Origin: Acidobacteriota bacterium | Lineage (GTDB): Bacteria; Acidobacteriota; Thermoanaerobaculia; UBA5066 | Length of the DNA: 64,000 nt | Direction: 5' to 3' | NCBI GenBank assembly: GCA_016716715.1 | Contig: JADJVE010000006.1 | Span: 129,259 to 193,258 of the forward strand | In this document: positions 56,851 to 56,956 of the stretch, one piece after another | Layout: every line of letters begins with the position of its first letter | Numbering within the stretch: the stretch's first letter is position 1 | Made by a program: the position numbers and the translations under genes | The notes under the pieces: model-generated | What the model was told of the DNA's origin: nothing | Database searches by the model: none | What the model saw: the letters and a program-made list of their open reading frames with translations, nothing else

Positions 56851-56878
56851 CCCGCACGCCGCGTGCGGGTTTCCGCAC
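56851..56878. promoter_or_regulatory. Candidate enhancer (UAS) for the sigma-54 activator: three alternating half-sites CCCGCAC-N5-GTGCGGG-N3-CCGCAC
   Basis: Read from the sequence. An almost identical element recurs at 59616..59643, likewise about 60-80 bp upstream of a -24/-12 promoter. Confidence 0.5.
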
Positions 56879-56940
56879 TCGCCGAAAGCCGTCCGCCCGT
56901 CATCCGACTCTCCCTCAAGGACTAAGCGGGCCAGCCCACA

Positions 56941-56956
56941 TGGCTTGGGCCTTGCA
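56941..56956 (+). promoter_or_regulatory. Sigma-54 (-24/-12) promoter TGGCTTGGGCCTTGCA, about 25 nt upstream of the CYTH–PPase operon
   Basis: Matches the TGGCAC-N5-TTGCW spacing exactly (GG and GC 12 nt apart). A near-identical copy lies upstream of the porin gene. Confidence 0.55.

Follow-up and report, generated by a model that had tools for sequence, protein, structure and literature searches.

Two putative sigma-54 promoter cassettes with nested-palindrome enhancers at a phosphate-related locus of an Acidobacteriota genome

Introduction

How is a cluster of phosphate-related genes in an uncultured lineage of Acidobacteriota switched on, and by which regulator? We examined this for a 64,000-nucleotide stretch of DNA, called the window below, from a genome of the class Thermoanaerobaculia (lineage UBA5066; assembly GCA_016716715.1, contig JADJVE010000006.1, positions 129,259 to 193,258 of the forward strand). 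The genes for a sensor histidine kinase and an NtrC-class response regulator lie here next to two phosphate-related transcription units, and each unit is preceded by an intergenic cassette, A or B, that consists of a 37-bp nested palindrome of four hexamers followed by a sigma-54 promoter. An original prediction, made from the window alone, held that the adjacent regulator binds these palindromes and drives both units. Our follow-up shows that the cassettes are real and far beyond chance expectation, and what could be checked of the predicted regulation holds throughout. As judged from comparative sequence analysis, A and B are most likely sigma-54 promoters with their own enhancers that answer to the adjacent regulator and its cytoplasmic kinase; we put the probability of this reading at about 0.8.

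Results

Two cassettes of the same architecture

The coordinates of the locus are collected in Table 1. Both cassette regions are present where the original prediction had placed them, with the inner half-sites as it gave them: CCCGCAC-GCCGC-GTGCGGG at 56851-56869 in A, followed by TTT and CCGCAC (56873-56878), and CCCGCAC-AGCGC-GTGCGGG at 59616-59634 in B, followed by TT and CCCGCAC (ending at 59643). Its count of three alternating half-sites has to be amended. The first two are exact at A, the third at that site is TCCGCAC, with one mismatch, and comparison with orthologous loci reveals a fourth hexamer upstream (GAGCGG at 56842-56847 in A, GCGCGG at 59607-59612 in B). The consensus of the element is G(A/C)GCGG-N4-CCGCAC-N5-GTGCGG-N4-CCGCAC, in which hexamer starts are 10, 11, and 10 bp apart, that is, spaced at one helical turn. 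A fifth or sixth hexamer completing three dyads was sought and rejected, as the flanking position fits GTGCGG no better than control offsets do (2.1 of 6). A second perfect dyad was seen at one other locus (L065; loci outside the window are cited by our L numbers).

At A, the first hexamer takes its “GA” from the TGA with which the activator gene ends (TGAGCGG, 56841-56847). Nearly all cassettes that lie 3′ of an activator gene retain this overlap, and this suggests that stop-codon choice and operator are coupled.

The sigma-54 consensus is TGGCAC-N5-TTGCW, and transcription starts about 12 nt 3′ of the -12 GC. Both predicted promoters have the form TGGC-N7-TTGC, with GG and GC doublets exactly 10 nt apart, so the -24/-12 spacing claimed for them holds. 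The gap from the last half-site to TGGC is 62 bp in A and 76 bp in B, within the 60–80 bp originally given. Measured from the element centre, the T of TGGC is 81 bp downstream in A and 95 bp downstream in B, and the predicted starts put the centre at about -107 and -121. The distances of 81 and 95 bp fall in the range of roughly 80–150 bp ahead of the -24 box that is expected for the inverted-repeat sites of NtrC-class activators. For promoter A the predicted start is near 56966-56968, which would leave a leader of ~14 nt with AGGAGGA before the ATG at 56981; for promoter B it is near 59746, with a predicted leader of ~55 nt ahead of the ATG at 59801. Each promoter lies upstream of its genes and points in the same direction. 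No sigma-70-like promoter was found in 56700-59900. The predicted leader of the porin transcript contains a small hairpin, GCCTCG-CCCG-CGAGGC (59758-59773), which is retained in L001, where a single change keeps the pairing as a U·G wobble.

Table 1. Coordinates of the genes and regulatory features at the locus (window positions).
Feature	Position	Strand	Description
Sensor histidine kinase	53633..55504	+	Pfam: PAS_4, PAS_3, HisKA, HATPase_c
NtrC-class enhancer-binding response regulator (activator)	55497..56843	+	Pfam: REC / AAA+ sigma-54 interaction / HTH_8
Enhancer A (upstream activating sequence), putative	56842..56878	+	GAGCGG-GCGC-CCGCAC-GCCGC-GTGCGG-GTTT-CCGCAC; kept in orthologous loci
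Sigma-54 promoter A, predicted	56941..56956	+	TGGCTTGGGCCTTGCA; GG 56942-43, GC 56954-55; boxes conserved, spacer varies
582-residue protein, first gene of unit 1	56981..58729	+	signal-peptide-like N terminus; no Pfam family
Family I inorganic pyrophosphatase, second gene of unit 1	58753..59520	+	Pfam; signal-peptide-like N terminus
Intrinsic terminator closing unit 1	59552..59593	+	12-bp stem, then T run; terminator scan
Enhancer B (upstream activating sequence), putative	59607..59643	+	GCGCGG-ACAC-CCGCAC-AGCGC-GTGCGG-GTTC-CCGCAC
Sigma-54 promoter B, predicted	59720..59735	+	TGGCTTGGGCTTTGCG; GG 59721-22, GC 59733-34
Phosphate-selective porin O/P, first gene of unit 2	59801..61246	+	Pfam
Conserved ~200-residue protein, no assigned family	61283..61942	+	start uncertain; syntenic gene in L004, L007, L009, L012
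CYTH-domain protein (triphosphate-tunnel family)	61971..62444	+	Pfam
DASS-family (Na_sulph_symp) transporter	62452..64000	+	Pfam; runs past window end

Chance expectation

The perfect dyad occurs twice in the 64 kb, only at sites A and B. When the 35-nt four-hexamer pattern was searched with at most one mismatch, these two sites were observed, against no match in 100 dinucleotide-preserving shuffles. The expected count of TGGC-N7-TTGCW is 0.11 per window. A third sigma-54-like match, TGGCTTGCGCTTTGCT (19792-19807, minus strand), lies within a long open reading frame for a membrane protein and has no enhancer nearby; it is therefore probably due to chance.

Conservation of the cassettes

Orthologous loci retain the gene order kinase, activator, 582-residue protein, pyrophosphatase, (porin), 200-residue protein, and CYTH protein, often with DASS, PhoU_div, and PHO4 genes close by. 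The element directly follows the activator stop codon at these loci, and TGGC-N7-TTGC is found ~90–100 bp further on. In an alignment of 37 cassettes, the only conserved columns are the hexamers with their 4/5/4 spacing and the TGGC and TTGC boxes (boxes ≥90% conserved), while the N4 and N5 spacers, the N7 promoter spacer, and the intervening 60–80 bp have diverged. The same pattern extends to ~58 distinct cassettes from Thermoanaerobaculia and Holophagales, in which hexamers, spacing, and -24/-12 boxes are kept and the rest has diverged; one locus, L004, has a central spacer of 6 nt. B-type cassettes were also found at nine other loci (L001, L002, L015, L020, L024, L038, L039, L057, and L071). 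The cassette is thus duplicated in the sense that two copies share one architecture, as the original prediction said, but the duplication is not recent: both types are old and common to two classes.

To see how far the element extends beyond these loci, we scanned a genome collection (one genome per species) with the pattern GCGG-N4-CCGCAC-N5-GTGCGG-N4-CCGC, which returned 70 stretches. All those from Acidobacteriota (Thermoanaerobaculia, Holophagales, Geothrix) are at this locus except two from Holophaga, and nearly all have a -24/-12 site 65–110 bp away. Matches in Actinobacteria, Chloroflexi, and other groups are long perfect hairpins without a -24/-12 site. No genome has more than two strict sites, which suggests a small, local regulon of two to four promoters. 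In the two Holophaga exceptions (L014, 6380-6416; L082, 2820-2856) the element precedes a gene for a secreted DHH/DHHA2 phosphoesterase, away from the activator gene, and is followed at 71 bp by CGGC-N7-TTGC; to judge from these sequence features, the site is a remote member of the predicted regulon. At L012, a degenerate element (20/24; 17653-17689) with CGGCACGGGCGTTGC stands before a minus-strand CYTH-DASS operon, which suggests a third promoter where the CYTH and DASS genes are inverted.

A metagenome scan for the inner dyad followed within 60–88 nt by TGGC-N7-TTGC gave at least 120 stretches. Homologs of the locus genes are present on 18 of the 120 listed. These 18 all reach 21–24 of 24 against the four-hexamer template, and for 16 the distance is 91–93 bp. 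The other 102 listed score 12–21, mostly ≤17, with distances spread evenly over 69–97 bp. Among the matches listed, the outcome is bimodal. The original prediction had proposed to count how often element and promoter co-occur genome-wide, and in the genome and metagenome scans together the true cassettes separate cleanly from the background, in support of the pairing.

Two further sets of matches were set aside. In Planctomycetaceae (L026, 1733-1765; L081, 1769-1801), a palindrome with 15-bp arms and a CCGCAC/GTGCGG core has TGGCGAGGCGATTGC 84 bp away and no locus genes near it, and may represent an unrelated sigma-54 system. In L141 (3147-3261, minus strand) and L111, from a lower-GC organism, TTGCGGAATTCCGCACCAAATGTGCGGAAATTCGTAT and then TGGCATAAACGTTGC precede a gene for a Gfo/Idh/MocA oxidoreductase, with no homologs of the locus genes.

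Hairpin or operator

A palindrome this well conserved might work as an RNA or DNA hairpin, terminating or stabilizing the activator and pyrophosphatase transcripts, with the promoters served by another enhancer or by none. The CCCGCAC-N5-GTGCGGG core could form a 7-bp stem right 3′ of the activator stop codon, where there is no other terminator, yet the terminator scan calls neither palindrome and most orthologs lack a T-run. A genuine terminator precedes site B, and in Holophaga the copies are flanked by divergent genes and are not at a 3′ end. The entire element can be drawn as two stems, but these show no covariation: their score equals that of shuffles (276/500), and the columns of the N4 spacers are mostly unpaired. 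Base pairing alone would not demand that the hexamer sequence be invariant, as it is, and the distance from element to promoter is constrained as well. A role as a hairpin is therefore very unlikely.

We also considered whether a small RNA akin to Rfam Collinsella-1 (RF01700) is encoded on the minus strand around site B. A cmscan match at 59544-59649 on the minus strand reaches 34.8 bits (E about 1e-6), just under the gathering score of 35, and spans the first 99 of 196 model positions. The matched segment is made up of the enhancer palindrome and, read in reverse, the plus-strand terminator hairpin with its T-run. Six orthologous loci that have B-type cassettes yield no match of this kind. 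We consider such an RNA exceedingly improbable.

The kinase and the activator

The activator gene next to cassette A encodes an NtrC-family protein, in agreement with the original prediction. Its receiver domain (PF00072, residues 6-115) has Asp53 as phospho-acceptor; the AAA+ domain (PF00158, E 1.4e-58) contains ERGAFTGA, the Walker A motif GETGSGKG, and the Walker B motif VFLDEIGD; and a Fis-type HTH (PF02954, residues 401-440) forms the C terminus and is conserved in orthologs. The recognition helix, ARRTLYDR, is invariant across orthologs of both classes. The protein stays under the cut-off of every named NCBIfam equivalog compared (NtrC, AtoC, ZraR, GlrR, NtrX, PgtA, and others), the best being AtoC (338.6 vs. 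714 bits). No rpoN gene is among the annotated open reading frames of the window; the use of sigma-54 is implied by the intact GAFTGA motif.

The first ~130 codons of the kinase reading frame (53633-54030) are Arg-rich, of low complexity, and not conserved, and the conserved part begins at about residue 140 in tblastn searches against orthologous loci; the real start is therefore probably downstream. No transmembrane segment is evident, and the kinase thus seems to be cytoplasmic. It scores 102.1 bits against the PhoR equivalog TIGR02966, which has a cut-off of 334.2 bits. A Fur-family gene (53107-53526) lies just 5′ of the kinase gene.

Which protein binds the element

A sigma-54 promoter requires an enhancer-binding protein. 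Given this need, the adjacency of gene and element, and their joint absence elsewhere, the adjacent regulator is the obvious candidate. In essentially all genomes with the system, the first copy of the element abuts the activator stop codon, and the element is found wherever kinase and activator are present. In betaproteobacterial clusters that contain the 582-residue protein, pyrophosphatase, CYTH, and DASS genes without kinase and activator, both the element and an intergenic sigma-54 site are missing.

The element might nonetheless be bound by a different regulator, an enhancer-binding protein or repressor encoded elsewhere, with the adjacent activator serving other targets. The Holophaga copy before the phosphoesterase gene, apart from the activator gene, fits that arrangement and indicates that whatever binds the element acts in trans. 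The adjacent activator is the sole enhancer-binding candidate in the conserved neighbourhood, and its recognition helix is as invariant as the hexamers; the clusters that lack it, as just described, also lack the element. On this evidence we find a binder encoded elsewhere improbable.

Several observations weigh against control by the adjacent regulator, or against the phosphate role assigned to it. We infer the pairing of activator and element from conserved adjacency and co-absence. No IHF-like site or A/T-rich bend was found between element and promoter. Distances from the element centre to the -24 box in the 58 cassettes fall into classes of 71, 81–84, and 91–95 bp, which represent only two or three independent indel events, and the 14-bp difference between A and B does not amount to full turns of the helix. 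Although the classes step by roughly one turn, helical phasing is for these two reasons suggestive only. At the loci examined, the inorganic phosphate transporter genes (PhoU_div/PHO4) have no cassette of their own, only terminator-like hairpins, and the kinase has no feature that ties it to phosphate sensing.

Target units and the inducing signal

The two cassettes precede two separate phosphate-related units, as had been predicted, with a strong terminator between them and cassette B on its 3′ side. The 582-residue protein that heads unit 1 has homologs that bear “hypothetical” names only, mainly in Thermoanaerobaculia and also in some Betaproteobacteria including Rhodocyclales. Its AlphaFold model (predicted local distance difference test, pLDDT, 80) has an N-terminal triphosphate-tunnel (CYTH/TTM) fold, for which Foldseek matches include 3sy3, AtTTM3 (5a5y), and YgiF (5a60) at E 1e-6 to 1e-5. 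The C-terminal ~215 residues, with a moderate model (pLDDT 72), match no solved structure in the PDB (best E 0.09). Some genomes encode the two domains as separate open reading frames, and a pyrophosphatase gene with a signal-peptide-like N terminus always follows the 582-residue gene on its 3′ side. The DASS transporter gene probably still belongs to unit 2. The remaining genes of the window are ordinary housekeeping genes.

Taken together, the tunnel-fold protein, secreted pyrophosphatase, porin O/P, CYTH protein, DASS transporter, and the DHH/DHHA2 protein (found in Holophaga and Rhodocyclales) suggest a coherent module that would break down condensed phosphates and take them up. We assume that the inducing signal is phosphorus status or condensed phosphate, and this is the least secure step of our reading. 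The same mechanism could instead respond to a carbon, redox, or envelope cue through the PAS domains, with the phosphate genes only part of the response. A cytoplasmic kinase with two PAS domains and no PhoR-specific features would suit such a cue, and in the full-text literature we found no paper that ties the system to phosphate. Yet all identified targets, of the A, B, C, and D types, are related to phosphate, pyrophosphate, or polyphosphate, and in several genomes the system stands beside PhoU_div/PHO4. A signal other than phosphate thus appears somewhat unlikely.

Discussion

Comparison with known systems

The arrangement most resembles NtrC (NR-I) at the glnAp2 promoter of enteric bacteria. 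There, as here, a two-component regulator with REC, AAA+ (GAFTGA), and Fis-type HTH domains is paired with hexamer dyads that have a 5-bp gap and are clustered upstream of a TGGC-N7-TTGC promoter. The sites lie about 100–140 bp upstream of the promoter in both systems, and activation here would, as at glnAp2, take place at a distance. The two systems differ in recognition sequence (CCGCAC-N5-GTGCGG here vs. TGCACC-N5-GGTGCA), in layout (four hexamers packed into one 37-bp nested palindrome vs. separate 17-bp sites), and in targets (phosphate-related vs. nitrogen genes), and the regulator reaches 335.6 bits against an NtrC equivalog cut-off of 558.6 bits.

AtoS/AtoC, ZraS/ZraR, and GlrK/GlrR (QseE/QseF) are likewise local two-component enhancer-binding systems that serve neighbouring sigma-54 operons. 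AtoC, ZraR, and GlrR are the best-scoring named models for the regulator, although it remains well under their cut-offs (338.6 vs. 714, 308.7 vs. 760, and 314.5 vs. 763 bits). Unlike the membrane sensors of those systems, the kinase here is a soluble PAS-PAS protein, and the targets and operator sequence differ as well. A broad survey of enhancer-binding proteins connected phosphate or sulphate stress with the QseF-like class only (Francke et al., 2011; PMC3162934).

To PhoR/PhoB the likeness is functional only: a two-component system lies beside, and apparently controls, genes for porin O/P, phosphatases, and transporters. The regulator does not belong to the winged-helix OmpR/PhoB type, and its promoters are of the sigma-54 class in contrast to sigma-70 promoters with Pho boxes. 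A search with the Pho box CTGTCAT-N4-CTGTCAT, which is the proteobacterial consensus only, gave best matches of 10/14 at cassette A and 8/14 at B. The Pho-box-like sequence CCGTCATCCGACTCTCCC lies at 56897-56914, between enhancer A and promoter A; it is one of six matches of such quality in the window and is shared by close relatives only.

Searches of the full-text literature turned up no account of this system, nor of phosphate genes under sigma-54 control in Acidobacteria. The mechanism is the textbook arrangement of enhancer and sigma-54 promoter; it differs in operator sequence, compact layout, and targets, and it falls outside all named families compared.

Proposed mechanism

By analogy with the NtrC family, the kinase would phosphorylate Asp53 of the regulator. 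Phosphorylated dimers would then occupy the hexamers, probably as two dimers or as one on the central dyad with the outer hexamers helping, and would build an AAA+ ring. A DNA loop would bring the ring to the closed complex of the sigma-54 holoenzyme, and ATP hydrolysis, acting through the GAFTGA loop, would open the promoter. Unit 1 would yield the secreted triphosphate-tunnel-fold protein and the secreted pyrophosphatase, and unit 2 would yield porin O/P, the 200-residue protein, the CYTH protein, and the DASS transporter. Their joint output looks like a module for the breakdown and import of condensed inorganic phosphate.

Biological significance

Wastewater-plant Holophagaceae and Thermoanaerobaculaceae have been proposed as polyphosphate accumulators (PMC8100337). 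We tentatively propose, at somewhat less than even odds, that Thermoanaerobaculia and Holophagae have a dedicated sigma-54/NtrC-type circuit for scavenging extracellular poly-, tri-, and pyrophosphate, beside or instead of PhoR/PhoB, and led by the secreted tunnel-domain fusion protein.

The locus defines a testable regulatory unit in an uncultured lineage, made up of a kinase/activator pair, a 37-bp operator, two to four sigma-54 promoters, and a short list of targets. Its most novel aspects are the assumed link to phosphate and the predicted secreted tunnel protein, which has so far gone unannotated. Should phosphorus status prove to be the signal, these Acidobacteriota would control phosphate scavenging through sigma-54 and not through the usual PhoB/sigma-70 route, and metagenomes could be searched for the module with operator plus promoter as a sequence marker. 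The targets hint that condensed phosphates may be handled outside the cell by a pathway with the triphosphate-tunnel protein at its head, which would be relevant to phosphorus cycling in wastewater and sediments.

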